From Protoeuglena noctilucae (Eukaryota), in contig OY253679.1 in the NCBI GenBank assembly GCA_958009085.1, positions 248,001-312,000 of the forward strand: a DNA stretch of 64,000 bases, read 5' to 3'. The stretch's first letter is position 1, and each line of letters begins with the position of its first letter. The translations under genes and the position numbers were made by a program. The notes under the pieces are model-generated. The model ran no database searches. It saw only the letters and a list, made by a program, of their open reading frames with translations, and had not been told where the DNA came from. Of the stretch, positions 1 to 47,429 are shown in pieces.

Positions 1-3000
1 GTGGGGGCTTGGGTGGGGCCGGGGGTGCGTCCGGGCGGCGGGGGTGGTCGCGCGGGGCCGCGGGGCGTCTCGCGGGGTTAGACGAGGGTGATGAAAGCGA
101 GAGTGGCGAGAGCGACGGTGATGACGACGAGGGTGTCAGTTTGGACAGCGAGGATGAGGGGGGCAGTATCGGGAGCGAGGGGGAGGGGAGTGACGGAGAG
201 GGGGGGTGGGAGGAGGTGGGGGGTGCGCATGGGGAGGTGGGGGCAGGCGGGGTGGCGAGAGGTTGCGAGGAGCGCACTACGCCCGACCAGCCAGGCGTGA
301 CGGACCTCAAATGGTCCCTGGGGGAGCTGAAGGGGTACCTGAGCAAGCAGGGGTACGACTGGGAGCCCGTGTGGGAGGGCATACTGGATGTGGTGGTGCG
401 TACGGTGCAGGCTGCCGAGCCTCGCATGAACGCACTCAACCACGTGCACCTGCCGAGCCGGCTCAGTTGCTTCGAGTTGTTTGGGTTCGATATCATGCTC
501 GATTCTCGGCTCAAGCCGTGGCTCATCGAGGTCAACACCGGGCCCAGCCTGGCCGCCACCGCGCCCCTGGACCGCGCCATCAAGTTCCCGCTCCTGAGGT
601 GAGAGTCATATGCGATATGCATCCTGTTATCACAAATGCTGATACTCATATCAAGTTCCCGCTCCTGATGTGAGGGGAAGGGGTGATGGGCAATCTATTA
701 TCTACTACATTGCAATGGGCCATATTTCCAAATAATATCGAGCTCCCACTCCTCAAAATGTGCTGTGTTCGTGATCAACAAAACGTGTTCCGTTCCCATG
801 CAGGGACCTCCTCCACCTGGTGGGCGTGCCGGCGACCAACAAAGCACGATACGTGGCGGCACAGAAGGCCGAGCAAGAAGCACGTCTCACGGGCATCACC
901 CGAGCGGTCAGCGCGCGTGGTGCGGTCGGCCGGGGGGGTGACGCACCGGGCTCTAGCGCCGCGGGGCAGGGGTCGCGCCGCGAGCGGCCAGTGCTGGTGC
1001 AGGCGGCGTCGTCGCGCATCAACCGCCGCACGGTGGGGGAGGCCAGCGCCACGGACTTCCGGGGCGTGTTGCCGGAGGACCTGCCACTGTCCATCAGGTG
1101 AGGGATTAGTGATGTTAGTCACCGTCTGATGCTAGTCATGCTTGTGACTTCCGGGGGGTGCTACCGGAGGACCTGCCTTTGTCTATTAGGTGAGGGATGC
1201 GTAAGATTTGTGATGCTATGCTCATGAAGAGCAACCTGCTTCGTAGGACACTGACATGCCACTCCCGCAATCATTGCCAACCTCCGTCCCGCCCTATCGA
1301 CACCAGTGCTCAGCACACTCATACCACCCTTCACCCCACCCCCTCGCAGGGAGACGGAGGCCGAGCACGCCCGCCGCGGCGACTTCGTCCGCGCATTCCC
1401 CAGGGAGGACGACCCCGACCGCAACCATGACCTCTTCGACACGCCGCGGTACGAGAACGAGCTGGTCCGCGCGTGGCTGCACCACAAGCGGGGCCTGCTA
1501 ATGCGGTATGGCACGGTCGACCCACGGGAGCTGCCCAGGGGGCACCCGGACCGGGTGGCCACGAGGAGGGCGATAGGTGAGGTGCTGTGTACGAGTGGAG
1601 ATGAGAGAGGGGTGGCGATGTGCAGGGCGCTTGGTGAGGGTTGCGTGCACTGGGTTGAGATGTGCTAAGAGTGAGTTTACATGTGAGGGGCGCAGGGCGA
1701 CCAACTCATCACTGACTCATGTCACTACACCTAAGTGTTCTCATTTAATATACAACGTGCATGCTCTCCTCATGCCTGCAGGCTGCCCCCCCAGCCCAGG
1801 CGCCCCCGCCTCCCCGTCCCGAGCATCCAGCACCACACACGGCCCATCATCGACCGCCACGACCCTCGCGGCGCCCATGCCAGCGCCCGCCAGCGCCGAC
1901 GGCACCGCCCGGAGTCGCCAGGCATCAATCACAACGCCGAGCGTCGCACGTGACAGCGCAGACCACATCGGCATAACACCGCCGTCAGAACCCCAACCAC
2001 CCGCCACCGTTCCCACGTCCCACGCTACGCACTGGGACAACTCCAAATCGGCTCTCACAGAGTCGGGCCAGCAGCCAGTAGCTGCGATGGCGCACGCAGA
2101 GCGCAGTGTGGCAGCGAGCGCCCCCGACGCAGCATCTCCAACCAAAGCTTCACAAAGCGGGTCTCGACCCCGCGACCCACCCACCGCTGCCGCGTCGGCT
2201 GCCGCTCCCGGCGTGGCCCGGTCTTCCAGTCTCATCAGCAGCGCTGGGATGCGGGCATTGCGCGCGGGGCCACCGTCATCCCTGCCCATGAGCGGAGTGA
2301 TCGGGCCGCTTGACGCGGGTGTGGGGCCGTGGCAAGTCGACGAGCGTTTCGATGAGCAGGAGGGCGAGGGGGTGGGGGCGGAGGGGCGCGGGGCGGCCAC
2401 GCTGCGGCGTACGGGGTCGCGCCGTCGCGCGATGCCCGGCCGTGCTGGGTTCGATCCCGAGGGGCAATTACCCAGTGACCCGGTGGGGTTGGTTGGAAGC
2501 CAGTCGGGAGGGGCGGGGAGGGCGGGGCGTGGGGTGGTGACGGTGACGGCAAGACAGGCGCCGACGGAGGGGCCCGTGGGCGAAGGGGCGCGACACGGGT
2601 GAGGCAGGGCAGGATGCCTTTTTCTGCAAGGAATGGAATTGCTCACTGTCACTGTGGCTGTGCGTGTGACACGTAGCATCTCTCGTCTCTGTTGCAATGC
2701 TCGCTGTGATTGTCACTATCATTGCTGCTATTAATCCCTTACCTCTCTCTCTCCCTCACCTGCCCGCAGGTTCCTCTCCACGACCGCACCCAGCGCCGCT
2801 GCATCTCGCCGCCCTGTCCTAGCCCACACGTCGTTACGGTCCGGGGCAGTCATGACGCCCGTTGTCACGCTGGATCTATCCGTGTCTGGGCGCGAGGCTG
2901 CGGCACCCGATGCGACCATTAGAAACCAGGGAGGTGCCGTCACCGCATCCCGAGCCCCATCACGTGTGGGCACGACCCGGCCCAGCATCGCCGAAGCGAC

Positions 3001-8673: not shown

Positions 8674-11600
8674 TCATGCCGCGCCCTGCAGCCTCACTCG
8701 TATGGGGCACATGCGCGTGAGCATGTCCGCGTTGGGCACGCGGGAGCTGGTGAGGAGGATGAATCGGAACTCAGAGAGACGGTCGTCTGCGGGAAAGGTG
8801 ACCATAGCACGAATTGCAGCCTCAGCTTCATGCATGAGTAAGCAAGGCGATGGCACAAATCGCAGTCTCAGCATGCATGCACACACAGAGACACACACCC
8901 ACACACCCAGCATGCATGCACACCTGTGAAGTTGAAAGGCGCGTACTCCTCTCCGTCCTCGGGCCTCACGAGTTTGACATACGCCGCGTCTTTGAGCAGT
9001 TGCTTGGACAGAAGGGACTCCCAGAGACCCTCGTGGATGGCGCCGAAGAAGCGGGGCATGCTGCGTAGATGGTGGGGTGATTATAGCTCTTAAGTAAGAG
9101 CATCTGGTGAGGGTGGAGTGACAAGTGGGCACCAGAATTACTGAGAGAGGTTTACAGCCCAACGATGGGCTGCAAACGTGCCCCGACCAGCATCCCAGTA
9201 CCCCTCCTTCCCTCACCTGTCCCACATGTCGGCGTCCATCATGTCGACCACGAAGGGCTTGCCGTACCGCAGCGCCCCCAGCAGCGACCGCCTCAGCCGA
9301 TTGGGGTCCATGTCCGCGGGGGAGAGCGCCACGGCGAAATTCGAATCGGCGTATTTCAAAAACACCCCCGCGCGACCGCTCGCGTCCACCACGGCTGGCC
9401 ACCGGCCGTCGGCCTCGAGTCGCCTTCCAACGTCCTTGATCAGCACATCTCCCAAGTCGCGCAGATCCACGGACAGGCCCGGGGGGTCGTTGGGGTCGCT
9501 CGCGCCGCCGTTCGCAGTCGACCCGTGCTGCGCCTGTTGGCTGTCGCGCAGCGCGAGCCTGTAGGCCAGGACATGGGATGACGGTTCAATGGTGACGGTA
9601 TCGGTGACAAGGTGTGCATCTCTGCCACAGTGTTGTGCGCGGGCACGATGGGTCGTCACGCTGTCAATAAGTCCCTTTCACAATTGTGAGCGACAACCCA
9701 GTCACAGTCATGCCCACCGCCCTCCCCACTCACCTTGCTTCCTGCAGCACCTCTACAAATGCACCTCTACAAATGAAACACAACCTAAACCCCTCCCCCA
9801 CTCGCCTGGCTTCCTGCAGCGCCTCCGCCGCCTTCGCAGCCACCTCCCGCGCCCTCTCCACGGCCCCCTCGGCGTCGTGGATGGCCGCACGGCACGCCGC
9901 CAGCACACTCTGGGGACGCTGCTCCTCCACTGACGTGTCGTACTCGAAAATGCGCTTCTCCCGGTCACTGAGGGGGACAGGTGCGCGTGAAGGAGCAATG
10001 GGGGCCCATTGTGGAGATAACCTAGCCCATCTTGCTCATATCACATCACGTCACCCCAACCCCTCACCTGAGCGCCTTCTTCAGTGCCATCTGTGCCCCT
10101 TTACACTCCACCCCACAGCACCCCACTCTCCTCACCTCAGCGCCTTCTTCAGTGCCATCTGTGCCGCTTCGTGCCCCCTCTCCGCCTCCGCCACCGCCCC
10201 CTCTGCCGTGGCGACTCTCTGCGTCGCTGCCTCTGCGGCGAGGGCTGCCTTGGCCCTTGCACGCTCCGCCAACGAAGCGCGGATCGCATCCGTCTGCGAG
10301 AGGCCAAAGTAACAACGATGACAAGCGGATTGCACAAGTCTGCGAAAAGCATTGGTATGCATAATGCGGATGAGAATACACGGATAGCTATAGCAAGGAT
10401 AGCATTGGCATAGATGCTGTGAGAACTGCACCATGACTGCATCGCATATCACCCACCCATCCACATCAACCGCGCTCACCTTGCTCGTGTCCCACCCCCG
10501 AATAGCCGCCTGTATCTCGGCGCTCGTCGGGATGCCGTCCGGCAGCTCCCCAAACTCATTGGGCACGCGGGGGTCGGCCCCCGCCTCCAGCAGCGGCGCG
10601 ATGAGGTGGACATGGCCGGCGAAGGATGCGCGGAAGAGCGGGGTGCGCCGGAACTCGCCCTGGTTGTTGGGGTCCGCGCCGCGCGACAGCAGGAGCTTGA
10701 CGGTGGGCAGGTCGCCCCCCGCGCACGCCTCGCTCAGCAGCGTGTTGCCGTGGCCGTCTGCCGTGTCGACGGGGTCAGGGAAGTACGGCTGCGGGAGAGA
10801 GAGGATGGGTTGGGGTAGTGAGAAGATGGGATCGGGGAGGTAGGGCTGCGGGAGACTGGGGGTCATCGGTCAGGTAATGTTAAGTGTGGACTGGTCCTTG
10901 CAATCCATGGACGGGTGTCCCGAGTGGGAGGGTGTGGGACGGCTGTGTGCGGGTGCGGTGGAAGGATGTTGGCTTACTCCCACCCTTCGACACTCATCCC
11001 CGCCCCCACTACTCCCCACTAGGTCCCCCCTTCGACTCTCACCTCCGACTCGGCCATGAGCTTCACCAGCGCCTCGCTGTCCCCCTCAAACGCCGCCTCC
11101 AGCAGCGCCTTAGTCAGACGTCGCGCCTCACGCTTGCGCTGCTCCTCCTCCTCCGTCGCCTGCGAAGGGATGATCGAAACGGACAGTGAAACAAACCGAC
11201 GCTGAGTCATGACAGTAGCTGTAGCTGAAACACGTCAGCGCCCATCGCCCTCTTGTCGACCCCACGAGCCCCGCAGCGATTGCTGTCCCCACCACCGCTG
11301 CACCAACCACCGCGTCCCGTCGCACGGACCTTGGCCCTCGCCGCAGCCTTGCGTCTCTCCTCGCGCACTTGCGCAGCTATCGCCGCCTGATGGAGTGCCT
11401 CCATCTCGCCCTCCATGCGCCGCCCTAGCTCCCGCTGCGCACGCGCGCGGGCAGCCGAGCGCCGCGCCAGCCAGCCGCGCACCGCAGACTGGACTGTTAC
11501 CGGGCGCTCCACGTCGGCCTCGGTCATCGTGCGCGGCTCCGCGGGGCCCTTGTCACTCTTCCCGGCCTTGCTCCCGGCCTTGCTCCCGGACACGGCCTTC

Positions 11601-12537: not shown

Positions 12538-15500
12538 ATGGGTAGCCGCGAGCGGCATCCGAGCGCACACGCGGTTTCAGGGCGTGGCCGCGAAGCGGAC
12601 GCGGTTTCTCCTCACGGCTCGCGGCCAACTCGCACATGGATCGCGTGTTCGTTCATTCTCTCATCGCTCGCGCGGGGAAAACGACTCCGCGCCCTCCGCG
12701 GCCCACCACGCGCAGGGACGAGGGGCCTCCGCATCAAAATCGATACGTCCGGCAGGCATTCGGACCGTCCCGACGTCGACGACAGCCACCAGCAAGATCT
12801 CCTGTCCCGGTCGCCACTCGCTGCGGACCTCAGGCGGTCCCTGAAGTCCGGCGTCGACCACCGCCCCTCGTGGGCCGCGGGAGCCGCGCTGAGCCCCGCT
12901 GCGAGCCTCGCGCCGGCCGCCGCGGCTCCTGCTTCGACGGAGGTGGGTCTCGAGACCCGCACGGGCCCATTCCAGGAGCGAATCGAGGCGGAGCATCGAT
13001 TCCGCACCGTCTGCCGCGCCCTCCTGGCGCCCGGGCTGCTCCCCGGGCCCGCGCGGCCCGACGAACCGGACGCGTCGTCGCTGGCGGGCCGCGTGGCGGT
13101 CGCGCGATGGGCCGCGCGGGCCATGGGGATGCCCGCTGTGGTACTCGAACGTGCTGTGGCCGAGGCCCTGGACGCCAACCGCCAACTCTTGGCCACCTAC
13201 GAGCGGTGAGAGAGCCATAGCACGAATTGTTTCTTGATTGTGACAGCTGCGGCGAGCAGGGAGCGAGTCCGCGTCGCCCGTCGCAACCCTTGTGATGGAC
13301 AGACCACAACACACCGCCACCTCTGCCGTCGCCTCCCGCAGTCAACACCGGGCCCTTCGGTCCGCTCGTGGTGGGGACGGCACCCCGTCCGCAGAGCACT
13401 TCTTATCTCCCGAAGCCTTTGCCGCTTGGCGTGAGAGCGAGCTGGAGGAACTGGAGAGAATCGCGGGCGCCCTGCGCGCGATGCCGGAGTTCCAAGCGAG
13501 CGCCAGGGTGTGCCTGGTGGGGGCGAGGGACCTGCCAGACCCACCCAAGGGAGGGCGCAAGGGGCTGGCCGCTCTCATGTCGTGCTGTATGGCGCCGGGT
13601 GAGCAGGGCAGGGTGTGCGGATGTGGGGAGTGGGTGTTGGGGGTGGTAACACATTGCATGTGTTGCTGGGCACACAGCACAGAGCGAGGGGGCAAACGAG
13701 GCGCAAGCGGTTGCGATGCGGCCGCTCCCATATATGCCCATTCAATTTCAAACTGCAAACTCATTCTCACCTCATCCCACCCCCAGCGTCGGAAGACGAG
13801 GGCCTGAACGCCTTCGCCGTCGTCACCCTGGGCCCCTCCCCCGGCGCCGTTTATGGCGACGCCCGCCACGTGCGGCACGCCAGCGCGGCCAGCGGCGTTG
13901 GCGGCGGCGGCGGTGCGGACCGGGTCATCGGGGGCGCGCGAGTTGTTATGGGAAACACGGGCAGCGCCGGTAGTAGCGCGGGTGCGGTGTGCGCGTCGGT
14001 GGCCAACGCCGTCTTTGCCACCGAGCCCCGTGTCAACTCCCGCTCCCCCGCTTGGCACGCGGCTGCCCCCGCGGCGCTTATTACGACCCGCGAGAGCGAC
14101 CGTCTGCGCATTGAGATCCGGCACGACCCCTCGGCCAGTCGTGCGTTGAGTGACGAGGCGGTACGGGCGTTGGGGGCGGGGGAGGGCACTCCCAGGTATC
14201 AGGCGGACGGGCGCGGGGGCGGCGTGGAGGTGCGGGGGGGGCATCTGCGGGTGGAGGGGGGGCCGGACTACGCGATGATGACGGGGATCGGGTGAGCATG
14301 AGATGGGGATGCGTATTGTGCTGTGGTGTTGGATGTTATGGGGTGGGGTTGTGCGATGATGACGGGGATCGGGTGAAGAGTGCGGGTGGGTGGGGTGGTG
14401 CTATGAGAGCGGGCATTGGGCAGGTAGCGTGAGCATGCAACGAGCCACCATGCGATGCAATTGCGATGATAGACGTTATTGATTGCCACTCTTCATGGCG
14501 CAGGGAGGAGCTGTCACGTGGTGGTGGTGGATCCGCGATGTGCGCCATGTCTGCATTGGAGGCATCGCCCACCGACGCAGCGGCCCCGCTGCTGGGATGG
14601 GTGGAGGTGCCGGTGGATGCGGGGGGGGTGGCGGTGACTGCCAAGAGAGGTGAGAGAAATGGGCGGTGAATAGACGTGGGGCGGCTGGGGCTGGGCAGAG
14701 AGTGGTGAGAGGGGTGGGGTGCATGTGAGAGGTGCTGGTGGATGCGGGGGGGGTGGCGGTGATGGCGAAGAGAGGTCTGATGGATGGGGTGATGTGAGAA
14801 GGGTGGCTGTAGCTGTGTGCGCAAGGAGATGCGCGGGGTTTGGCCACTCACCCCCACTGACTTCCACCTACCTCACCCCACACCGCTCATCACCCACCCC
14901 ACCCGCACTAAGCCCCACATCACCCACACCACCCCACATATCAGCCACACCACCCCACATATCACCCACCACCACCCCTCACCCGCCCCCAGTCCTCTCC
15001 AAGATGGCCGTGGACCCCCGCATCCGCGACCGCCTGGCCAAGCGAAACGTCAGACCCGACCCACCCAACGACGCCAACTGGCCGGCCCTCGATCTATTTA
15101 TAGAGTGTGTATGCGAGAGGGGACAGGTGGCGACAGGTGCGGGCGGGCAGCCCGGGGCAGTGGCGGTGGGTCCGACGTCTTCGTACCGAGAGCGGGTGCG
15201 GGCGGTGGGGGCGGCGATGGGGGCGGTGTGGCGCGCGTGGGACGATGCGCGGCGTCTGGGTGCGGGTGCGGGCGTGGCGGTGGGGCCGATGGATGCGCAT
15301 GCGTTTGGGGGCGTGGGGGGTGCGATGGCGGCGGCGGTGGAGGCGGCGTATCAATGTGCGGGGCACGTGCCCACGGGGACGGCGCTGTTCGTGGCAGTCA
15401 AGGCGAGAGGGGTGGATGGGGTGGTAGGTGGATGCATGGGGGTGGTGCATGCTTGCGGGGATTGGTGCATTGCATATCTCATCGTCACTCTCACTTGCAT

Positions 15501-18500
15501 TTGCACTGCCACTGTTACCAACACCACCCTCACCCTCACCCACACACTCACCCCCCTTGCCCCCCCAGCTGTGTGCCTACCTTCGTGTGCGTGGCGAGGC
15601 GCTCTGTCTGTGCCTGGCGCGTCACTTGCTGGAGCGATGGGCCGAGGAGGCGGGGTACCTGGTGTCGCTGCGGTGCGCGGTGGTGCCCGTGGCGGCGGCG
15701 ATGAGGGGCGGGACGATGAACAGGGTGGAGGTGAGGGGTGGAGTGGGGTGGGAGTGGATGTGAGGGGGGGAACGATGAACAGGGTGGAGGTGAGGAGATG
15801 GGTGGGATAGGGTGGAGTGGGGTGGAGATGTGGGGTGGGGTGAGGGGGGGGTGGAGTGGGTGAGGGACGCGGCAGCATGGGGTGGTACGGCGAGCACCAC
15901 CGTCAATTGCCTGCCAAGTATCGACTGCCTGCCCACTCTCGCCTGCTCTCCCCATTCGCAGCACCAGATGTCGCTGGATCTGATGTCCGACCTGGCCAGC
16001 CATATCCATAGTTACATCTAATTACTAGATACTAATTACATCTCCCATTGCTCTCCATCACTCGCAGCACCAAATGGCATTGGACCTGATGTCGGACCTG
16101 GCCAGCCGGGTGGTGCAGGTGCTGGACGACCTGTACCTGGCACTGCCGGAGAAACAGGTGAATGGGGATAGTTTCATTTACGCATGAATAGTAATGGTAA
16201 TAGTAATACATGTGCATGGGTGGTGCAGGTGCACGGTGCCACTACGTGCTTACTACTCTCAACTCCCTCGATATCCCATCTCTCCCCCCCCAGATGTCTG
16301 CCTGCCTGAAGGCCCTGGTGAGCCTGGCGGGCATGGCGCTGCTGCAGGACCCTTACCCAGTTGGATTCGACGAAGCATTGAAGGTGCACGTCAAGCGCAG
16401 CGCGAGGAACCAGGCGAGTGTTATTGAATATCGAAAAATGATATCATTATAGTTATAATAATGTTAATAGTTATTATAAATACTGATTTTTATTGAACAT
16501 TATTATTGTTCTTATCGCTGCGTCTTATCGTTCACTCCCAGGTGATCCGCGTGCTGAGTCAGCAGGAGCAGTCCTTAGAGGAGGCGGTGGGGGCGGTGAC
16601 GCGGGCGGTGCGGACGGCAAAGGAGGCGATCGTGGGGGATCTGGTGGTTGCACACGCGCTGCCGGGGAGCAGGGGGGTGGCACAGGTGAGGAGATGGTTA
16701 CTAGTACCTTTACTATGACTATTACTATCACTATCACTATCGCTGTCATTATCACTATTACTACCACTATCACTATTACCACCTCCCCACCATCTCAGGC
16801 CGCTTCTGCCACGCGCTATTCGGTGATTGCGGCCGCGTTGGGCCAGATATTCAGCGGGATGGAAACGGTGACATACACGGCGGCAGTGCAGTTATTGGAA
16901 GATGCTATGGCGGAGTGGCACGAGGAGTTGAGGAGGCAGGGGATGGTGCGGAGGAAGGTGGAGGGGGAGGGGGAGAGAGGTGAGGGGTGGGGTGGGGGTG
17001 GGGGTGAGGTTGGTGGTGAGGGGTGCATAAAGGGCAGCATGTGCACCAGCGCTACCTTGCACATATGCTACCCACCACCACCATAACTAGACACAAACAC
17101 CACCCACCATTCACCGCACACCCCGCCTTACTCGCAGACCCCCTCTCCCCGTCCCCCCCCATCGCCATCACGCCAGACAACCCCTTTCACCCCGCCAACC
17201 CCACCGCCACCACCCCCGCCCCATCCCACGCCCGCCGCCCCTCCGGGACGCCCCGCGACAACGACAGCGACGTTTACCCTACCCCCGCCAGTAATCCGCC
17301 AGAATCGGGGCGCCAGGGGCGGACATCATCGGCGGGGGCGAGTGTGAAAGCGACCCCACCCCGTGCCCCACCCGCACCCTCACCCCATGCACCCCGCGCA
17401 TCCTTTCTCACTCCCGACAGCGCCGGCGCTCGCAGCAACATCAGCGGCGATCGCAGCGCCAACGCCACCCCCGCCCCACGCACCGCTGGTCGCAACACTG
17501 GTCGCAATGCCGATCGCACCGCCAGTGCCACCCCCGCCACCCCCGCTGTCCCGTTGGCAGCTGCCGAGGCATCGCAAAAGTCGTTGAGCGGTGGCCGGTC
17601 AGTGACTAAGATCGTGGATGGGGAGATTGAGTTGGTGGATTTGGAGGCGATGTTGGGTTCGTCCATCCGGGCGTGGGTGGGGGCGGTGGCGGAGAAACTG
17701 GTGCAGTGGGTAAGTGGGTGGATGAATGGGGTTGATAAGTGGATGTGAATTATTAAGTTGGATGAGTGCAGTGGGTGAGAAGGGGTGGATGAGTGGGTGA
17801 ATCAATGGGCGAATGAATGGGGTAGGTGGGTGGATGTGAGTGATTGGAATGGGTGTGGTTGGGTGTGCTGGTAGATGGGTGATGTGGTGATGTGGTGCGC
17901 GAGCAACTACTGCGGCTTGACAACTTCTACTGCTTCAGTTTTACTCACATATGAGTAATTGTCACTACCACTTCACGTAGGTGGGCAACAACATCGCTGC
18001 TGACTCGTTTGAGCCGGCTGGGTCCGACCGTGCCCAGCGCCACAGCATGAGCGTCATCGACCTGTTCCAGGCGAGATGGGGCGATGGATGGTCATTTGTT
18101 ATGTTATAGTTATAATTGTTGATAGCAGCAGTCACAGCATGAGCGTCATCGACCTGTTCTAGGCGAGAAGAGGCGATGCGGTGGTTATTCGTAATAATAC
18201 AGAGATATCTTTTGTTGCGTTGCTCCTCTTTGTTGTCCATAATAGTGCATTTTCATGAGAATAACATAAGTTCTATAAGTTCTTATTATCATCATCAATT
18301 ATCAATTATTTACAACAATTACCATCCCCCACCTCCCCCATCTCCCCTATCCCCGCAGCTGCTGGGCGCCGTGACCGAGCAAGTGATGCGCCGTGCAGCC
18401 CTGGGCCCCCCCAGCCGCCACGCCAGCGTCGCATTGCAGCTGGAGCGCGGCATGGGCGCGGCCTTCCAGGCGTACGCGGTCGCAATCGAGAGGCTCTGTT

Positions 18501-21500
18501 TGGACGCTCTCGATCCCAAAAGGGCGCCGGCCGTGATTGAGAGGAGCGTGGGGGGAGCGGGGGGCGGGGAGGGTGGCAATGCGGCGTGGACCACAAAGCG
18601 GCTGGCGACCATGGTGAGTGCTTGTGTATAGTGGTGATATGTGTAGTTATAAATATTGGTAATAGTTGGTGATAATTACGCAAGGGGCACGGCTGGCGAC
18701 CACGGCGAGCCGACGGGATGGCGAACTGTACAGCTAACTGTGGATACTGGTAATTGTTGATATTGATAATGTCACATTGTAACACCCCTCCCTTGTTGCG
18801 CAGCTCAACAACCTCCGCGCCATCGAGGTGCGTCAGTTCCAGGTCAAGTGCGTTTTGCGAGACCTGGCCACCAAGGGACGGGTCACGGCGTGGGGCGGGG
18901 AGCAAATGGACGAAAGCAGTGGTGACGATGGTAACGGTGGTAACGATGGACATGGTCATGATAATGGTGATAATGATGACGATATCGACGACGATTTGAG
19001 TCTGGAAGGGGGCTCGTCGTCGGGTGGTGGAGAGGGGGAGGGTGGCAGTGCGGGGAAGGGTGGTGGCGAGGGGGCGGGGGCGGTGGGGCGGGCATCCGAC
19101 GCCGCGGGGGAGATGCTCAGGCGAGGGCGGGCGTTATTGTTGTTATTATCAGTATTATAATATGCAATATTATTGGTATTGATGATGATGTCGGTGTGAA
19201 ATTGGTAATATTATTGTATTATTATAAAGTAACCGTTCCCCGCCCGTCTCCTCCGCACAGATCCACCATCCTTCGCGTGCTGGGGGAGCTTGGCTGGCGC
19301 GTGCGTGAGCTGGTGGGCTTCCACGTCCGGCACGCATTGACGGCGGTGCGGAGGCAGGGGGCGGGGGCGATGGAGGGGGAGATGGCGGGGGAGGGGGCCG
19401 AGGGAGAGCCGTTCCGGTGAGCGGGTTTGAACATGGATATTGATATCATGGCTGCCATGGGCGTGGGGTTGAATTGCGACGTTTAGCGGTTGTCATTATA
19501 CTGACTGCGATTGGCATGTTATCGACGATTGCTTTTATTGCTAGTACGAATATTCAGTTGATATCCATGTATAATAACAACATACATAGTGACTACTACC
19601 ATCGACACACTAACCGCCTTGGCCACCCCTCCTTCCCTGCCCCGCAGCAAGCAGGGCCTGATCGCCAGAGTGAAGGCCAAATACCAGCGATATTTGGCTA
19701 AGAAAGCCGCCAAGAGAGCACCAAAATGGGCGGCGCAGGCTGGGGGATCTGCCAGCGCCCAAACGCCAGCGATGGGGGTGGGGTTGGGGGGGGGCGGTGC
19801 GGGCAGTCATGCAAATGAGGCGATGGCTGGGGCTGGGGCGGCGGCCAGACGCAGGGGATCGCGGGGATTGGGCCGGGATCGATCCGGATCGACGCTTGAT
19901 GTCAACGCCGTCATTTGCGATGAGACCAACCCATTTGCTGTGACGGGGGGTGGTGGTTGGGGTGGGGATGGGGAGGGCAGCGATGTGTCGGAGATGGATG
20001 CGGGGCTGGACCCTTCGCTCATGGCGGTGAGTGGAATATGGTAATATATACCATTATATGGTGTAAACATTGGTAAATATACAATAATGCTGTATTGGTG
20101 AGTGGTTGTGTCGGAGATGGATGCCGGGCTGGACCCTTCGCTCGTGGTGGTGAGTTAGAGATGGTTATTGATATAATTGGTACAGTTATTGATTAAAATA
20201 TAATCATTGCCAACGAGATGGTTATTGATATAATTGGTACAGTTATTGATTAAAATATAATCATTGCCAACGATGATCGATGCTTAGCACTCGGTGCTTT
20301 CAACTACTAGCGAATGCCTCATGCCTTTTAAACGATTGCAGGGCGACGCTGCACCAATGGATGACGGTGCCGGCAGCCGCGAGCTGTCGGGTCCCGGCGT
20401 GATGGCGTCGCTGCCCAGTGACGTGGCTTCTGCATATCTCGGGGGAGGGGGGGAGGCGGCCGTGGTGGCCCTCAAAGCGTACCTGGACAGCGAGGTGATG
20501 GACGATGACGGTGTTTGTGTTGTTTTATTTTACAATATAAGTATTTTGTAGATAATATGCTACAACACCACAACACCAACTAACCACCACTCTCATCACC
20601 CCCCATCCCCACAGATGGAGTGCATGTATTTGAGCATGGTCCCCGCCGTGTTCAATCTCGCGATGTCCGAGTCGTGGTCGGCGTGCCTGCGACTGTTCGA
20701 GGATCTATTGCTTCATAAGGACACGGCCATTGCGGCGCTGGGGACACCACAGGAGCTGGACATGGCGCGGGTGCTGTTCGTGGAGGTGAGATGGGAGTGG
20801 AACGGGAGGAGTTGTAACAGTCGGTCGTGACATCATATGGTCACACCCTATAAGTGTAACACTTACCACCATTTGCATGGCGCGGGTGACGAGCGTGGCA
20901 TAGCCCATGGACCGTCATTCCGTCATTCGCATCCCCATCTGCCACTGGGACAAGGCGCCGTGGACGAATTTGGAATATTCTCTTTCCCACTCCGCTGGAC
21001 GGAAAATATGCCAACTCTTCCACGGCGCTGCGTCACAGTGGCAGATGCTCATGCGAATGACGGCAGATGCTGATGCGAAACGGCAGATGCTCATGTGAGT
21101 GACGGCTCCAAGGTGGGACGATGCAGATTGCACGACGATGCGGTAACATGGTTATTACAGTTTCATTTATCATGATATCACAATGAAAAATATAATGCGG
21201 GTATCTAGTACAGTATTATGACATACATCAATATACAAATACTTATTCATATATTGTATCATTATCAATTTTAGTGACACCCAATTAACACCAACATCCT
21301 TTAATATCTACCCCCGCCCCTCCACAGATCCTGGAGCACTTCCACGGCGACAGCCTGGGTTTGCCCCGGCGCCAGTTGGAGCGGACGTCGCGACGGGTGG
21401 CGCGGCTGTTCGACCTTCATTATTCCTCAACAAAAGTGCTGCGGAAGGTGTTCTTCGCCTTAAAGGCGCAAGTGATCGAGAGGCGCACGCACCTGCTGCC

Positions 21501-23888
21501 TGCTGCAGAGGCGGGGGCGGAGGGGGCGGGGGCGGCGGGGATCGAGCGGCCGTCTGTGAGGTGAGGAGATGAGGGGTGGTGGTGGTGGTGGTAGTAGTAA
21601 GACTTATCGACCCGTCCATCGCTCCCCAGCTCCACTATACTTATTTATGATTAGTAATTAAGAGATTTTTAACTACTCTCCTCACTCTCCTTGCCCCTCC
21701 CCACCACCCCCCCAGCTTTGCGTCCCTCTCCCACGCCGGCCCCAGCGGCCAGGACATCGCGCGTGCAGTGACAGCACTGGGCCCGGAGGGGGTGTCGATG
21801 TTAGACGTGCTGGAGGTGCTGAGGCAGCGGGCGGGGAGGGACGAGCAGGCCGCGGAGGTGGGTAGTTGATTAATTGAGCGAGTGGTGGGGAGTGGTGGAG
21901 TGAGTGAGTGGTTGGTTGGTTGGTTGAGTGAGTGAGTGAGTGAGGCAGTGAGTGGGGTGCGTGGGGGTGGGAGGGAGTGCGCATGCGTGGGAAGCGAGTG
22001 CGCAGGTGCGGGTAGTAGTGAGGGTGCATGGATAGACTAGCAAGTAAAGATGGCGCCACGCATCGCCAGGTGCCGCCAGGTGCCGCAATACTAATTATAG
22101 TCATTATAGTCATAAATTATACATATATAATCATATTAGTGTCATATATAGTCATATCCCCCATCTCTCCCCACCACCCTCCCCCAGGTCGTCTCATCAG
22201 GTCGTCAGGTCGTCTCATATACTACTAGATATACTATCATAATTATGAACCTCATTCTCACTCTCTCCACCACCCCCCAGGTCGTTTCGGCCGAGGGCGA
22301 CGCCGCCCGCCGCGACCTCCTCTCCTCGCTGTTCGGATTCGACCCCGGGGCCACCTCCCTCGTCGCGTCGCACCCGTGCGCATTGGACGACGTGCCGGGG
22401 ACGCTCTTCGTCACCACCAGATTCCTCGCATTCGCGCCCCACGAGAACCTCAGGCACTCGTGGGACCCACGGGGGGCGGGTGAGTAAGCATGCGAGTAAA
22501 GTTTTTAGATATTATTGTTTTTGAACGTGATGGAGGGTGATGAAGTAAGGGAGATGATGATTAAATTGTTTCCAAGTAAATTGCTATATATCATCTCTGA
22601 CCACCCCTCCGTTTCCATCACTTGATATCGTGCTATGGACCCCTATCCTCTCCAATCCAAACCGTCATCGCAGTCGACGGCGCTGCGGCTGCCCCCGACC
22701 GCCGCGTGGTGGTCCCCGTGGCGAAGATCGCAGCCATGGATGCGGAGACGATGGGGCACGAGGAGGCGGTGGTCATGGTGAGCAGACCATAGCTATTGAT
22801 GTATGTTGAGTATATGATGTGATTAATTGTTACTAACTGAGAGTGGTTGTGGACGCGGAGACGATGGGGCACGAGGAAGCCGTGGTCATGGTGACGGAAA
22901 GAGACGCGTGCTGTGTTATCAATTGGTCCCTACCATTGTCCTGCAATCATCAAAACCCCAACAATCCAATGATCATAAGCTTTCATTTATTATAAATCCC
23001 TTCTCTCCTTGCCCCTTTCAGATCGGCCCCGACCACGAGCGCCACGTCTTCTCGCGTTTCGCGGCACGCCAGAGGGACGTGCTGCTGTCCACGCTGTGGA
23101 CGGCCGTTTCTGGCACCGGCACCGCGCTCGAGGCCTATCTCGCCAAGCAGATGCGCGGGGCGGCCGAGGGCGTGGGCGGGGTGCTGCCGGCGGGGGAGGC
23201 CGTGCTCCGGAGCTACAAGTGCGCCAAGGCGAGTAGCTAGTAACGGAGGCGTCGATGGCTGGAGTGGTCAAATGGTCCATGGATGGATCCATGGGTGACG
23301 TTACCACTGTTTCTGTGTAAGTAATCATGATCGTTATTATTGTTGCTGTAATTACTGATTATTAATTTGTTGTTATCATTAGTATTCGTTTTATCAATAT
23401 GCTCTTATCCGAACCCCCTCTCTTGTTCTCAGATCACGAAGGACCGCCTCCGCCTGAAGCACGGCACGCTCTACGTGTGTTTCAAGCACCTGGTCTTCGA
23501 CTCCACCGAGTGCACCCGCAAGACCATCCCATACGTGGACGTACTCAAGGTTAGGCGGATGGTTGGAGTGTGATAATGTATGATAGTAATATGGTGATAA
23601 CATAGTTGTAATTGTGACGGCATCGATGGAGTATCGGGGCGATCATCATAGCACAGCGAGGGAAGGGTGTTATCATATCAAATCGACCGTCTATTCGATT
23701 GCTTGCTTATTGTCCCACAATCCTCGCAGGTCACGTGCGAGCACAGCGACTTACACGGACCGGTCGTGACGTTCAAAGTGCCCGTCTACGACAAGAAGCG
23801 GCTCAAGCTGGCCGGGTTCGAGTCCCGCCAGGACGCAGTGGATCTCGTCAGCGTCATCTCGGGACTCTGCGACGTCCACCGGCGGTAA
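12538..23888 (+). CDS. Munc13/UNC-13-like tethering protein: C2 domain, MUN (MHD1+MHD2) domain, two C-terminal GRAM-like domains
   Basis: C2-like RVCLVGARDLP; MHD1-like WVGNNIAADSFEP..RHSMSVIDLFQLL; MHD2-like LKAYLDSEMECMY..EILEHFHGDSLGLP..LFDLHYSSTKVL; GRAM-like LVASHPCALDDVPGTLFVTTRFLAF and EAVLRSYKCAK..HGTLYVCFKHLVFDS. More than 20 exons; start codon uncertain, stop TAA at 23888. Confidence 0.7.
20158..20273. repeat. Perfect 57-bp AT-rich tandem duplication in an intron
   Basis: GAGATGGTTATTGATATAATTGGTACAGTTATTGATTAAAATATAATCATTGCCAAC at 20158 and 20215. Confidence 0.95.
20920..21063. repeat. Intronic imperfect inverted repeat (hairpin, ~62-bp arms, ~18-nt loop)
   Basis: 20920-20982 aligns to the reverse complement of 21001-21063 with roughly 11 mismatches and one indel (hand alignment). 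Confidence 0.9.
21899..21945. repeat. Compound tetranucleotide microsatellite (TGAG)n(TGGT)n(TGAG)n, intronic
   Basis: Directly visible in the sequence. Confidence 0.85.
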
Positions 23889-41468: not shown

Positions 41469-44149
41469 ATGTACACCGGGGTGTCACGCGAAGCAAGACG
41501 CGCGCCGCCAGAAGACGGGGACGTCGAGGACGTGCCGCTTGTCGATCGCGGTGGGTCGTCGGGGTCGGATGAGGACGTGGAAGCGCCGTCGGCCGGCCAG
41601 CGGGGCTGGCCATCGACGAGCGGAATTGACGGGACTTCCTGGGGCGATCGCACCGGCCGCAAGGACGCTTCGTCGTCGTCGTCGTCCGCCACCCTCTCCA
41701 CGGACGGGCCGGCCAAAGGCGGGTGCGCCGGGGCCGAAGCGGCGCTCCCGGTGGCGTGGCGCGGCAGGCGTCGCGCGGACGATGTCCTGACGCTGCACGA
41801 GGCGAGCGCCTCGGTTCCCGTGTCGCTGGGCGGGGGTTTGTGGAAACAGCTGCGAGGTTACCTCGGCATCGGTGTGGTCGTCAGTGTGGGTTATATGGAC
41901 CCAGGCAATTGGGCGTCGGACCTGGGCTCCGGATCCCGCTTTGGTTACGCGCTGCTGTTCGTGGTCCTCCTTTCCAGTCTGGCAGCCATGGTGAGCCTTG
42001 CGCTTGCTCCTTTGCTCTCAGCTGTGTATCTGTGCACCGTCCCCAACCTGCAGCTCGTGGATGGTGGGCGACCACACGCCAACCTATCCGTCTCGCCCGC
42101 AGCTGCTCCAGCACCTGGCGCTCAAGGTTGGCGTCGTGGCCGAGCGCGACCTGGCACGCGCGTGCCGGGACGCCTACGGCACTGCGGTATCCCGGGTCAT
42201 GTGGGGTGAGCAGCTGCATGTTCACAGAATTCCCACCGTGCAGTGAGCGGCCAACTTACTCACCACCTCACACCTGCCTCCCCACCCTCTCTACGCTCCG
42301 CAGTGGCGGCCGAGCTGGCCATCGTCGCCACGGACCTGGCCGAGGTCATCGGGTCAGCCGTGGCGCTGAACCTGCTCACCGGCATGCCCATATGGGCCGG
42401 CGTGCTGCTCACGTCGGCCGACGTTGTGCTCCTCCTGGCGCTGGGGGGCCGCAGCCCCCGCATCCTCGAGGGCCTCAGTGAGCGGCACGCGCATTCGCAT
42501 TCACTTCACGTTTGCATCGATGACGCAGTTGCACTGCTGTGGATAGGAATCTACAGACCGCCCAGTCGCACCAAGCCATCCTCCCTGCCTTGCCCCAGTC
42601 GTTCTGCTCACCGCCGTCATTGCCGGCGCCTTTGTCTTCAACGTCTGTGTGGCGTCGCCGGACTGGGGCCTCGTCGCGCGGGGGCTCCTCCCGAGGTGCG
42701 GCGCCGCAGCGATGCTCTTTGCTTTGCATCGCCGCTCCTCTCGTTGGATTGCTTTTCGACAGCATTGGGGTGCACACACGCACATTCGGTGCGTTCGGTA
42801 TCCCATGCAACTCGCTTCTCACCCGTACACGTCCCTCGGTGCCTCGCAGCAAGGTGCTGTTCACGGACGTGGATGCGATGCTCCTCGGCGTCAGCATCCT
42901 CGGCGCCGTCGTCATGCCCCACAGCCTCTACCTCCACTCGTCCCTCATCCAGGTCAGGGACTACAGGACCACGAAATGCCTGCCGTGTGCCTGCGTCTGT
43001 ATCTGCAGTGTGCATCCGCACACGCTGCAACACAGTTGACTGCACTGCACCTCGTTGTGCACCTCGCTGACGCCCTCGCAATTGCTCCTCCCCCAGACGC
43101 GCGCCTACCCACGGTCGGAGGAGGGCAAGCGCCACGCCGTGCGCTACGGGACGATCGACAGCAACGTCGCGCTCACGATGGCGCTGGGGGTCAACGCAGG
43201 CATCCTCGTGGTCGCGGCCACGGCCTTCCACTATCGAACGGACAACCCAACCGTGGCAGGTGGGGCGGCAGGGTTGGCGACGGCAGCATGTGCGGCGGCT
43301 GGGCAGGGGTAGCGCCCCATGCGAAGGCTGCTGTGGTGGCAACATGGCTTCGGTTGTTAGGAATGCGTTGCATAGCATGGTCGGTATCAAGACAGTTGCA
43401 AAAGAGCCAAGAGCGTTCTCTTCTTTTCTCTGCAGGCATCGAGGACGCGTACCGTCTGCTGGACCCGGCCCTGGGCAGCCGCATGGCCTCGACCGTGTTT
43501 GCCATTGCGCTGCTGGCGAGCGGGCAGAACAGCACCATCACGGGCACGCTCAGCGGGCAGATCGTGATGGAGGGGTTCGTGAACCTGCGGGTGAGACCCG
43601 AGTCTGTCGAGGCACATGTGCAGGGCCTTGGACAGGCGACGACCTGTGGCCCGCCCATTGCGCTTTCGTGCTTCAGCTTCCTCACAGCGACGCGTTTACG
43701 CGCCCTTAACGACCGCAGGTGGCGCCCTGGGTGCGGAGGGTAGTGACGCGGCTGCTGGCCATCGTCCCGGCGGCTCTCACGGCGGGGCTGGCAGGCAACC
43801 AAGCCGTCAACATGCTCCTGGGTGAGTCGCGGGGCCTGTGCCGATGTCACAGACATCCTTGTTACCAGAGAGGGCCGTGACTGCATGCCAGGACTGGCTT
43901 GGCTCCTGACGACCCACGCCTTCGCCTCACCGTACCCGTCGCCCTCGCCCTCCCTCCGCAGTCCTCAGCCAGGTCTTCCTCTCCCTCACCCTCCCCTTCG
44001 CTGTGGTGCCCCTCTGCCACTTCACCGGCAGCGCCAAGCACATGGGCGCAATGCGCAACAGCCTGTTCGTGTCTGCCGTCGCCTGGTTCACGGCCATCGT
44101 CATCCTCGCTCTCAACATCTTCCTCATCGTCCTGTCCGTGCGCGGATGA
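41469..44149 (+). CDS. NRAMP: NRAMP/MntH divalent metal transporter, copy A
   Basis: [66 protein letters not shown]; nine exons. Confidence 0.93.
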
Positions 44150-44710
44150 CGAGGCGTTGGCGCAAGGAGGGAAGGGCCGGCGCACATCCTGCCGTTTTCC
44201 CGATCACACTGGCCAGCGATCGGGTGGGGTCTTCCCCGCCAGCCCGAGCACGTAGGGCCCACCGCAGCCTGCGCCGCCGCACTCCGCGTTTTCTTGCGTC
44301 GAGGCTTTTTCCTCGGGGCGCCCCCTCCCAGGCTGAGACCTCCCGAGCCGGTGAGCGATGCATGGCACCAAAGGCGACGGGCGCTTTTCGGGACAGGCCC
44401 TGTATTCCATAGAACAGTCATTTTTGATAGAATTACGGACCGTTGGCTAGAGCGGCTCGAGGACCCCTCGCAACGGCGCCCCGGACCCTTGATGAATCTT
44501 TACTCGCCCCCGCCACCGACGCCGCCCCCTCGGGGTCATCGCGTCGCAGTCGAGTGAAAGAGAGCGAATGTGTTCGAAGGGCAATCCTAGCGTGGCGGCC
44601 CGTGAACGCTGGCGCGCGGGGTACAGTACCGATGAAACCCACCGTGTGCTGACCACCTGCGCCCGACTCCGCCCGACGCTCCTCGTCCCCAGGGTCGCTG
44701 CAGCTCGGAG

Positions 44711-47429
44711 ATGTCAGCCATGGGAGGTCCCACGACGTCTCGGGACCGCGTCCCGGATGGGGGGGAAGCGGAGGACGCTGGCCCGAGGCCCGAGGCCCTT
44801 GCGACGGCCGATTCCGGGACAGAGCCGCTTCTGCCGATCGCATGGCGCATGAAGAACCGCCCAGGGGAGGTTCGCGTGCTTGCCGACAGCTACACCAACG
44901 TCTCCGTGAGCTCGAGTGGAAAGTGCGTGCCCGCTGCGCTCCGTCGCCGCGTGCGCTGCAGCTTCCTCGATCCGCCTTCGCTTCTGTTGCGGCGTCTGTG
45001 TGCCTGAGCATGGCCAGACGGCATCTCGCGCAGGCGTGGAGCGAGCGCTTGCTACCGTCGCTTCCCCGCAGCTTCTTTCGCCACATGCGGAGCTTCTTCG
45101 GCGTCGGATTCATGGTCTCCGTGGGATACATGGACCCAGGGAATTGGGCGGCGGACCTGGGAGCCGGCAGCCAGTTCGGCTATGCGCTGCTCTTCGCCGT
45201 GCTCCTCTCGAGCATTTGCGCCATGGTGAGCGCTGCGCTGGGCTCCGGTGGCGGCCGCAGATACAGTGCTGGTTACATCGCTGCGAATCCCTCAGCCCTG
45301 CCCCCGCAAGCGGGAGGCCACACCCACCGCCCCCATGCAGCCTGCGCTCTCAGTCCCGGCAACTCAGCTTGGCTGTCTCAATCCAATCACACTTCCTCCG
45401 GCCCCGTCGTCGCCCGCAGTTCCTGCAATACCTGACCCTGAAGCTGGGCGTCGCCACCGAGCGTGATCTGGCCCGTGCCTGCCGTGACGCGTACCCGGAG
45501 TGGCTGTCCCGGTGCATGTGGGGTGAGGACGGTGCACGAAACGTGCTTCGCCACGTCACCCAATTCACTTGCCTTCTAACCCTCCTTTGCATTTGGCAAA
45601 TGCAGCCAGTGGCTGGGTCCAACTTACTCACCACCTCACGCCTGCCACCACCCACTGATCACCTCAAACCTGCCTCCCCACCCTCTCTACGCTCCACAGT
45701 GGCGGCCGAGCTGGCCATCGTAGCCACGGACCTGGCCGAGGTCATCGGGTCAGCCGTGGCGCTGAACCTGCTCACCGGCATGCCCATATGGGCTGGGGTG
45801 CTGGTCACGGCTGCCGACGTCCTTGTACTCTTGGCCGTGGGGGGGAAGAGCCTGATGTTTTTGGAAGGCATTGGTGAGCGGGGATGGGGGTTTTGCATTC
45901 GTGACTAGGGGATGGATGCGGTATGATACGCGGTCCACAGGTTAATTGCAATGGTAGGTGGATACCGATGAGTGTAGTAATCCGTACGGTTCTTGGCAAC
46001 CATGAACGAGCTTCCTCGCAAGCCCTGTTCCCCTCTCTGCTCCCCGCAGTGGCCGCGCTGACGCTGACCATCGCCGGCTGCTTTGCCTACACCATCGCCG
46101 CCGCCAAGCCCAGCTGGCGGGAAGTGGGGATCGGCCTCTTGCCCGGGTGAGGATGGGCATTGACTCAATTTGATAGAATCAACACTCCGCACAGTGGCTG
46201 GCCTGCTCCGCACCCCTCGCTCGCATGCTCCCAGCATGTGCATCCGCTGGCCTGCTCACTGCCACTGCCCACACGCGCGCTGCAACCACCTCAGCCCCCT
46301 TGTTTCCCCTGTATTCGCAGCAAGGTCCTCTTCACCAACCCCGAGGCCCTCACCCTGGCGGTCGGCATCCTCGGCGCCACCGTCATGCCCCACAACCTCT
46401 TCATGCACTCGGCCACCATCCAGGCGAGCAGGGGTGGGGAGCAGCAAAGCAAGGCAGCTGACAGTGTCCGAGTATGGATGTGGTTAAGAGCGTGGCTACC
46501 AATCGTGCTATGCTACTTTGGGTGCTACTACTGGTGCCCGATTGCACTCACCCACGCCTCACCTCTCCCTGTCTTCACTCAGACGCACCCCCACCACGCC
46601 CTCATCTCACTCTCCCTCACCCTCCCCTCCCACAGACCCGCGACTACCCGCGATCGGAGGAGGGCAAGCGCCGCGCCATCCGCTACGGCGGCTGGGACTC
46701 CAACCTGAGCCTCCTGCTGGCCTTCTTCGTCAACGCCGCCATCCTCGTCGTCTCCGGCGCCGCCTTCCACGGCCCGGACCGCCCCTCCGTTTCTGGCATC
46801 ACCGACGCCTACCAGCTGCTGGACCCGGCCCTGGGCAGCCGCGTGGCCTCGACCGTCTTTGCGGTCGCGCTCCTGGCGAGCGGGCAGAACAGCACCATCA
46901 CGGGCACGCTCAGCGGGCAGATCGTCATGGAGGGGTTCACGTCGTACCAGGTCAAGCCCTGGATACGGCGGCTGGCCACCCGTATGCTCGCCGTCGTGCC
47001 CGCTGCCCTGGTGGCCGCCCTCGCGGGGCCCTCGGGCATCAACACCATGCTCGGTGAGACATAGGAGGGCTTAGGGTAGATGCTTAGTTACTGTGTGGGT
47101 GAAGGAGACGTGCTTGGTCACGGTGTGCATGCCAGATGTGCACGGGTGCATGCCATGACATTACCGACCCCGGTCCCCCACCACTGCCGCGCCCTCTCTC
47201 ACCACTCCGTCACCCTCCACTGCCCGCAGTGTTCAGTCAAGTCTTCCTCTCCCTCACCCTCCCCGTGGCCGTCCTGCCCCTCTGCCACTTCACGGGAAGC
47301 ACCGCTTACATGGGTCCCTGGCGCAACCACCCCGCCACCACCGCCCTCGCATGGACCGTCGCCATCATCATCCTCGCCCTCAACGTCTTTTTGCTCGTCC
47401 AAGTGCCCGCAAGCCTCGCGGGGGACTAA
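44711..47429 (+). CDS. NRAMP: NRAMP/MntH divalent metal transporter, copy B (tandem paralog)
   Basis: [54 protein letters not shown]; eight exons; GC donor at 46424. Confidence 0.93.

Follow-up and report, generated by a model that had tools for sequence, protein, structure and literature searches.

The locus described here raises the question why an intron should carry, behind its working splice site, a second copy of the exon end that precedes it, altered only at silent positions. In the window, i.e., the whole stretch of 64,000 nucleotides of Protoeuglena noctilucae DNA that was analysed, a gene of the TTL (tubulin-tyrosine ligase-like) family enters from the left; it is matched by PF03133 with E=2.4e-22 on 249-599. 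Self-comparison of the 64-kb window reveals that 53 nucleotides at 1054-1106 recur at 1146-1198, at an offset of 92. Each copy ends with AG, the exon boundary and GTGAGGGAT, and the peptide of both is DFRGVLPEDLPLSI. Codon by codon, 7 bases in 6 of the 14 codons differ between the copies, mostly by transitions, and all seven differences are silent, including both first-position leucine swaps. The offset is out of frame, and a TAG lies upstream in the frame of the second copy, which we call the echo. A preliminary description, made from the sequence alone, had already claimed a duplicated exon end with its donor in a TTL-like gene, seven silent differences out of seven within one peptide and an out-of-frame offset, and all of this is borne out. 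Equally sound were its remarks that no acceptor precedes the copy (the spacer is poor in C, and YAG is not enriched at the starts of echoes) and that present coding use is not obvious, as the RNA contig splices 1097 to 1350.

Contigs, rather than raw reads, from 4 of 23 listed runs were compared over 150-2900. A single contig of the metatranscriptome X8 joins 598/804, 1097/1350 and 1576/1782, so that splicing starts from the first donor and the echo leaves with the 252-base intron. Neither echo letters nor a joint from 1189 occur in this spliced RNA, which is one contig of one run, a kind of data that drops rare forms. It is the sole RNA contig for the comparison over 1000-1400 that the preliminary description had proposed. 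The resulting structure of the gene is as follows.

1-598, plus strand: TTL-family exon, entering from the left of the window (PF03133; RNA joint 598/804).
599-803, plus strand: intron 1 (RNA joint 598/804), which contains an echo of 579-603 at 650-674.
804-1097, plus strand: exon 2, an open frame, covered by the X8 RNA contig with 0 other letters; the working copy is formed by its final 44 bases, 1054-1097.
1098-1106, plus strand: working 5' splice site and next bases; the RNA joint skips the 252 bases 1098-1349, GT..AG.
1107-1145, plus strand: G/T-rich spacer, with a possibly older left part of the echo at 1128-1145.
1146-1189, plus strand: echo, the intronic copy of the exon end, with 7 silent differences and no RNA depth in bins 1162-1345.
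1190-1198, plus strand: second donor, intact, with no RNA joint from 1189.
1199-1349, plus strand: remainder of intron 2, with a C-rich tract and a CAG acceptor.
1350-1576, plus strand: exon 3 (RNA joints 1097/1350 and 1576/1782).

In the DNA, one contig of the marine metagenome X1 spans 150-2900 with 0 differences, both copies included, and one contig of X2, at depth 265, spans 150-2409 and likewise holds both copies with 0 differences. The second copy is thus present, unchanged, in the contigs of both runs. X7 contributes pieces at 940-1092 and 1124-1954, again with 0 differences, the overlap at the left junction being only 22 letters. Since a flag marks X1 as possibly the source of the assembly, and X2 is maybe the assembly's own material, their independence is partial; two studies agree. 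No joint or indel at the focal repeat appears in the contigs of X1, X2 and X7, from which rare forms are dropped. Over 150-2900, no single-base difference was observed among the assembly and the contigs of the three DNA runs, marine metagenomes included, and diversity at the TTL locus is very low. The best non-self protein match of the TTL exon is 52%. Elsewhere, a BiP/HSP70 fragment (L082:1501-2511, minus strand) shares about 55% identity with named eukaryotes and 75% with one further protein; the value of about 55% suggests a lineage that may be fast-evolving or poorly sampled.

The likeness of the two focal copies possibly reaches further to the left. The segment 1128-1145 resembles 1039-1053 (DASHAC versus EAS-AT; shuffle p=0.003, noticed post hoc), with 4, 4 and 0 of 5 matches at codon positions 1, 2 and 3 and one extra codon in 1128-1145, and its score is reached by 0 of 432 other spacer windows. 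It may represent an older, more diverged left part of the focal echo. As a general trait, such a codon-level extension was not recovered, the score of 9 being reached in only 1 of 37 echoes, the focal one. The focal spacer does not significantly resemble the downstream intron (identity 0.52 versus a null of 0.54, rank 0.15). For intron 2, a further degenerate copy, the third, at about 1212-1250 was considered and rejected as not significant, with a shuffle p of 0.05 and equally high scores in 13% of 339 other introns. Intron 1 has a more decayed third copy at 737-753, and its unit 604-669 aligns collinearly to 675-780 (shuffle p=0.003). At the DNA level, 700-1500 matches nothing but itself in the assembly (26.3 Mb, 27 contigs), where the window corresponds to C12:248001-312000.

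The focal repeat is no one-off; echoes are a recurrent class. The sample comprises 1.034 Mb of genome, i.e., the window and 97 stretches, partly chosen as echo-rich. A self-trained coding model supplied 963 candidate donors, many of them surely false, and the TTL gene is the only one with an RNA-checked structure. Copies of the exon end lie 32-165 bases downstream of the donor in 47 rows (43 distinct). When introns were exchanged between donors, 0 of 963 matched in each of three shuffles, so that the focal echo is not due to chance. The mirror form, in which the acceptor and the exon start are copied upstream, was found in 12 rows among 929 candidate acceptors; one row is a duplicate, which leaves 11 distinct cases. 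Arrays of 3-5 copies, with dimer-like higher order, make up 10 of the 43 donor echoes. Purely intronic near-identical repeats are rare, with 3 among 340 GTGAG donors versus 25 with exon-end echoes. Regional clustering (38 of 623 versus 1 of 340 donors) is real in the sample; its groups were defined after looking and the sequence was drawn from echo-rich regions, so that neither its p-value nor the 4.5% rate is genome-wide. A motif-anchored enrichment count, blurred by coding repeats, was set aside. GC donors (GCGAG) seem common throughout the sample, several echoes included, and the introns of echo-rich regions are G/T-rich in their 5' halves and C/A-rich in their 3' halves. In addition to the TTL gene, the window contains the following members of the class.

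9724-9825, minus strand: donor echo, offset 72; working donor GC at 9805, echo donor GT (gene structure predicted).
10062-10169, minus strand: donor echo, offset 68 (predicted).
14272-14376, plus strand: donor echo, offset 81, with 0 differences in 20 exon bases (predicted).
15702-15795, plus strand: donor echo, offset 59 (predicted).
15956-16107, plus strand as inferred from the coding score (a minus-strand reading also passed the donor search): acceptor echo in mirror form, with acceptor and exon start copied at a distance of 106 bases upstream of those in use; 5 silent differences, 1 non-silent.
18041-18178, plus strand: donor echo with a GC donor, offset 92, and a stop codon in the echo (predicted).
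19984-20155, plus strand: donor echo, offset 123 (predicted).
58093-58370, plus strand: array whose units alternate between 54 and 52 bases and all contain an exon end plus donor; the dimer of 106 bases is near-identical.

Judged by its units, the array looks like a young minisatellite form of the kind known from human F7; the exon of the gene that holds it reads like what we take to be a WD40 repeat. Two further donor echoes were noticed outside the filtered donor set, at 14604-14776 (plus strand, offset 125, donor broken in the copy by eye) and at 22737-22894 (plus strand, offset 113, three silent differences by eye). Mobile DNA was considered as a source of the focal repeat, and an introner or transposon with target-site duplication was rejected, as 700-1500 is single-copy in the assembly and the 1.034-Mb self-comparison gave no such hit. 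The same 1-Mb sample holds a 5.6-kb element, 99.7% identical in four places (C3:453857-459433, C6:411448-417023, C8:387695-393270 and C8:507040-510000), which has short terminal similarity and is probably an active mobile element. It also holds a repeated element of 1.3 kb, its copies 97-98% identical, inside which short tandem units occur (C12:128990-130282, 135213-136794 and 158531-159832).

What distinguishes the class is a profile that changes abruptly at the splice site. It was counted on 39 of the 43 donor echoes; the four dropped had no donor in the copy, a likeness continuing as coding, the form of a young array, and an ambiguous strand, respectively. The offsets of the 39 are 32-152 bases. 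Their exon parts are 15-50 bases long with 7-8% mismatch. In the donor, mismatch is 3-15% at +1..+4 and 26% at +5, rising to 33-72% further on, and the copies almost always stop at +4 to +8. GT or GC is kept in 37 of 39 echo donors, which the search did not demand, and several pairs differ by swaps between valid donors (GT/GC, GTGA/GTAA). At intron positions +6..+15, mismatch is 54%, as compared with 7.0% in the exon part and 63% between unrelated introns. Identity between the spacer and the downstream intron is 0.59 versus a cross-echo null of 0.54, with 13 of 37 in the top 5% of that null; against same-intron controls this weak homology gives p=0.002, only 4 of 34 exceeding the controls' 95th percentile. 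Even the 16 echoes with at most one exon mismatch have an intron identity of 0.59 (null 0.54), and divergence of exon and intron is uncorrelated across echoes (rho 0.10). Forward simulation of same-allele duplication gives an intron mismatch of 0.29 at an exon mismatch of 0.087 and of 0.48 at 0.122, and never yields the observed pair, 0.54 at 0.070. In one array counted by hand, the exon part is alike even between two unused copies, and the spacers differ by about 40%. The profile is thus that of two working versions of a gene side by side, with the exon close and silent-biased, the splice site kept and the intron nearly unrelated, and simple decay leaves it unexplained.

The silent bias itself needs a more careful statement. 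If only the working copy is constrained, silent changes should accumulate in either copy, and non-silent ones should be confined to the echo. Under such a neutral-echo model, seven silent differences out of seven have p=0.003 to 0.036, depending on the mutation spectrum and before allowing for the choice of the focal echo as the cleanest of about ten in the window. The focal echo is the extreme tail of its class, and taken alone it overstates the effect. Over the 39 donor echoes, 49 of 85 changes are silent versus 33 expected by mutation class (p=6e-5), and by the same expectation 42 of 78 without the focal echo (p=8e-4), in a test whose expectation is too low wherever the working copy, too, has drifted towards A/T. 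Once the rates are estimated from the non-silent changes, the excess has p=0.024, or p=0.085 without the focal echo, and strongly AT-biased spectra abolish it overall (p=0.07 to 0.3). The ratio pN/pS between copies is 0.20-0.28 under spectra of unbiased direction and 0.35-0.43 under strongly AT-biased ones. The signal resides in C/G swaps, of which 20 of 25, from 18 echoes, are silent (context-matched p=5e-5), a class that was singled out after seeing the spectrum, stays significant after six-fold correction and is free of the problem of direction; outside the window the count is 16 of 20. Transitions have no silent excess. With GC3 at 84%, C/G swaps would be the changes expected between two working lineages. 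The acceptor echoes have 26 silent and 22 non-silent changes (C/G: 7 to 3), and when all 43 donor echoes are retained (53 silent, 40 not), the conclusions are unchanged. Across the class, silent changes are therefore in excess, modestly. The constraint at the protein level implied by the preliminary description stands in this modest form for the class; it does not hold as a rule, since without the focal echo 36 of 78 changes are non-silent and three echoes of the donor set contain stop codons.

The echoes look unused today. No acceptor precedes them, YAG occurring near 8 of 39 echo starts versus 40 of 165 background windows and the spacer having 2.1 C per 20 bases; in 36 of 39, splicing from the second donor would run into a stop or shift the frame; echoes show no enrichment of AG before the donor (21 versus 23 of 39); and the three stops point the same way. 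Recursive splicing was rejected as an explanation of the class, as AG before the second donor is not enriched.

In our view, which we hold with about even confidence, the focal echo is an unused intronic relic, the working exon end of a diverged homolog that was brought in by out-of-register recombination. On this inference, the copied piece had been a working exon end of a homologous chromosome that had diverged. Two routes can be envisaged. In the first, a break in the intron would be repaired by copying the intron of the homolog, with an overshoot of 15-55 bases into the exon, followed by end joining to the broken end. In the second, an older small duplication would mispair with the working exon end of the homolog, and unequal exchange or conversion would then import a new exon end together with its donor and the start of the intron. 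This second route would also explain the arrays of 3-5 copies, eroded left ends such as 1128-1145, and unused copies that are alike in the exon part and differ in their spacers; given the exon parts conserved between unused copies of arrays, a single cross-allele birth is not enough. Such joins would persist since the first donor and the last acceptor win, and the echo would later decay, mostly by transitions, and would collect non-silent changes and stops. Joins wholly inside diverged introns would be invisible, which fits the rarity of purely intronic repeats.

Several observations bear on this recombination with a homolog. Spo11-type, Mnd1, Hop2 and Ku families exceed the cut-off in a profile search (PF04406, two hits; PF03962; PF07106; PF02735), which speaks for their presence only. 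In the tandem paralogs at C12:226717-232156, about 350 bases, a whole intron included, are perfectly identical between flanks of diverged exons and unalignable introns, and this stretch is likely a recent conversion tract. A second tandem pair, at 41863-47400 of the window (C12:289863-295400) and transporter-like by eye, has a near-perfect tract over an intron end and exon start, within a surrounding identity of 73-76% and with intron positions that differ between the copies. We count such conversion-like tracts as support. On the other side, the homolog must have differed by about 10% at silent sites and by at least 30% in introns, and the species now looks monomorphic at the locus, which counts against this reading. 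A diverged allele was not found over the TTL gene in the contigs of X1, X2 and X7 (0 differences, in a thin sampling), nor did any of the four runs, X8 included, carry the letters of the echo in a working exon. Echo letters gave 0 matches in JGI metagenomes, a set from which near genomes may be absent, and of 597 pattern hits from a search there for relatives of exon 2, none was confirmed. For homologous exchange, homologies of 15-50 bases are short. A paralog as template was rejected, with none at the DNA level in the assembly and one weak protein match with stops (E=4e-4).

Belmaaza and Chartrand (1994) reportedly described one-sided invasion, in which homologous recombination is finished by end joining. 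Their work on one-sided invasion is listed in PMC4888836. In yeast, repair with tandem duplications and with template switches to a 72% identical template is described in PMC12891019, where the switches need about 200 bases of adjacent homeology. As in these cases, repair synthesis would leave a short duplication close to a break and could copy a diverged template, with slippage of tens of bases; unlike them, which are induced laboratory events, the present footprint is natural, repeated and centred on splice sites, and its template is unseen.

Among the rival origins, a tandem duplication over the splice site on the same chromosome survives best, followed by change that would be far faster in G/T-rich intron-type than in exon-type DNA, by refreshment of the echo through conversion from the working copy, or by both. 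It requires no second allele and is in good agreement with the arrays (10 of 43, with dimer-like higher order), the exon part conserved between unused copies, the collinear units of intron 1 and the conversion-like tracts of this genome. By our derivation, however, it predicts a pN/pS from 0.5 with one-way to 1 with two-way conversion, above both observed ranges, and it does not give the silent excess of C/G swaps. We regard it as unlikely, albeit worth keeping in mind.

An ordinary tandem repeat across the splice site in neutral decay, with seven out of seven as luck plus selection on the working copy alone, appears improbable. Its model is human F7, where, according to PMC1557585, intron 7 holds a 37-bp VNTR with 5' pseudo-sites whose first unit spans the exon-intron boundary, and where the most upstream donor is used and the downstream copies are silent. 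The focal unit likewise spans the boundary and repeats the donor, the most upstream one being used (1097/1350, one RNA contig). The array at 58093-58370 fits this model, non-silent changes and stops are numerous in other echoes, the p-value of the focal echo, picked from about ten, goes up to 0.036, and the strict class-wide test without it stays at 0.085. Unlike F7, which is one locus with identical donor sites, the class counts no fewer than 39 donor loci and 11 acceptor loci in 1 Mb. Resemblance between their units is confined to exon part and splice site and carries a silent bias; full-length likeness of head-to-tail units, as in F7, is seen only in the array. Neutral decay is largely contradicted by the simulation, which misses the contrast of exon and intron, by the near absence of young intronic duplicates and by the C/G excess. 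No genome-wide class with an exon-close, intron-far profile was found in the literature covered, which leaves out most subscription journals, F7 being a single-locus case; by this silent-leaning profile the present class differs from known duplications across splice sites.

Selection on the echo in place, whether as a swap-in exon end of minor or conditional use, a micro-exon, a recursive splice site or a splicing decoy, has in our judgement only a slim chance. It would account for the silent bias, the intact donors (37 of 39) and the in-frame extra codon of the left extension, and, as 1098-1189 is a GT..AG segment, two-step splicing to the same mRNA is possible. Against it stand the RNA contig, which uses donor 1 and carries no echo letters (one contig, rare forms being dropped), and all the signs of disuse given above, from the missing acceptors to the stops in 3 echoes; moreover, silent changes would not be favoured in a decoy. 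A second coding copy with silent-biased differences and a donor of its own is also found in mutually exclusive or tandemly duplicated cassette exons. Unlike these, the echo is a partial exon with no acceptor or pyrimidine tract in front, and it is absent from the mRNA contig. In intron gain by tandem duplication, a duplicated AG/GT makes a GT..AG segment between the copies. Both focal copies have AG/GT and enclose such a segment, 1098-1189, and the RNA contig shows only the 252-base skip, which a two-step route would leave as the same mRNA; unlike in that process, the duplicate lies inside an existing intron, and the class is not enriched for AG before the second donor. Both PMC4974935 and PMC3443670 deal with intron gain by tandem genomic duplication.

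We attach very little weight to a further possibility, that echoes are spare, interchangeable exon ends with their own donors, selected in place at the protein level and exchanged non-canonically, by DNA loop-out between repeats or at the RNA level, in an unsampled stage or condition. End joining can insert templated sequence by a synthesis-dependent microhomology route. Here, a broken intron end would have copied the nearby exon end and donor and then rejoined, so that spacer and downstream part are one original intron. This fits the offsets of 32-152 bases and the spacers that barely resemble the downstream intron (all but 4 of 34), and we consider it quite improbable given the 13 of 37 spacers in the top 5% of the cross-echo null, the copies that stop at donor +4 to +8 and the silent excess, which it does not give. 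An assembly artefact that fused two haplotypes is scarcely credible: the silent-biased, intron-diverged profile has a two-haplotype look, and X1 and X2 are maybe related to the assembly source, but in each of two runs, which belong to different studies, one contig carries both copies with 0 differences, and X2 has no second haplotype at depth 265.

If the recombination with a diverged homolog is true, introns of this organism would store hundreds of snapshots of the exon ends of other alleles. Like fossils, they would document past recombination between chromosomes that had diverged strongly, in a marine protist whose locus looks clonal today, and would give a visible trace of whole intron sequences being replaced while intron positions stay. 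The set of echoes also offers dozens of natural experiments on how the first donor and the last acceptor are chosen in a eukaryote with short introns.
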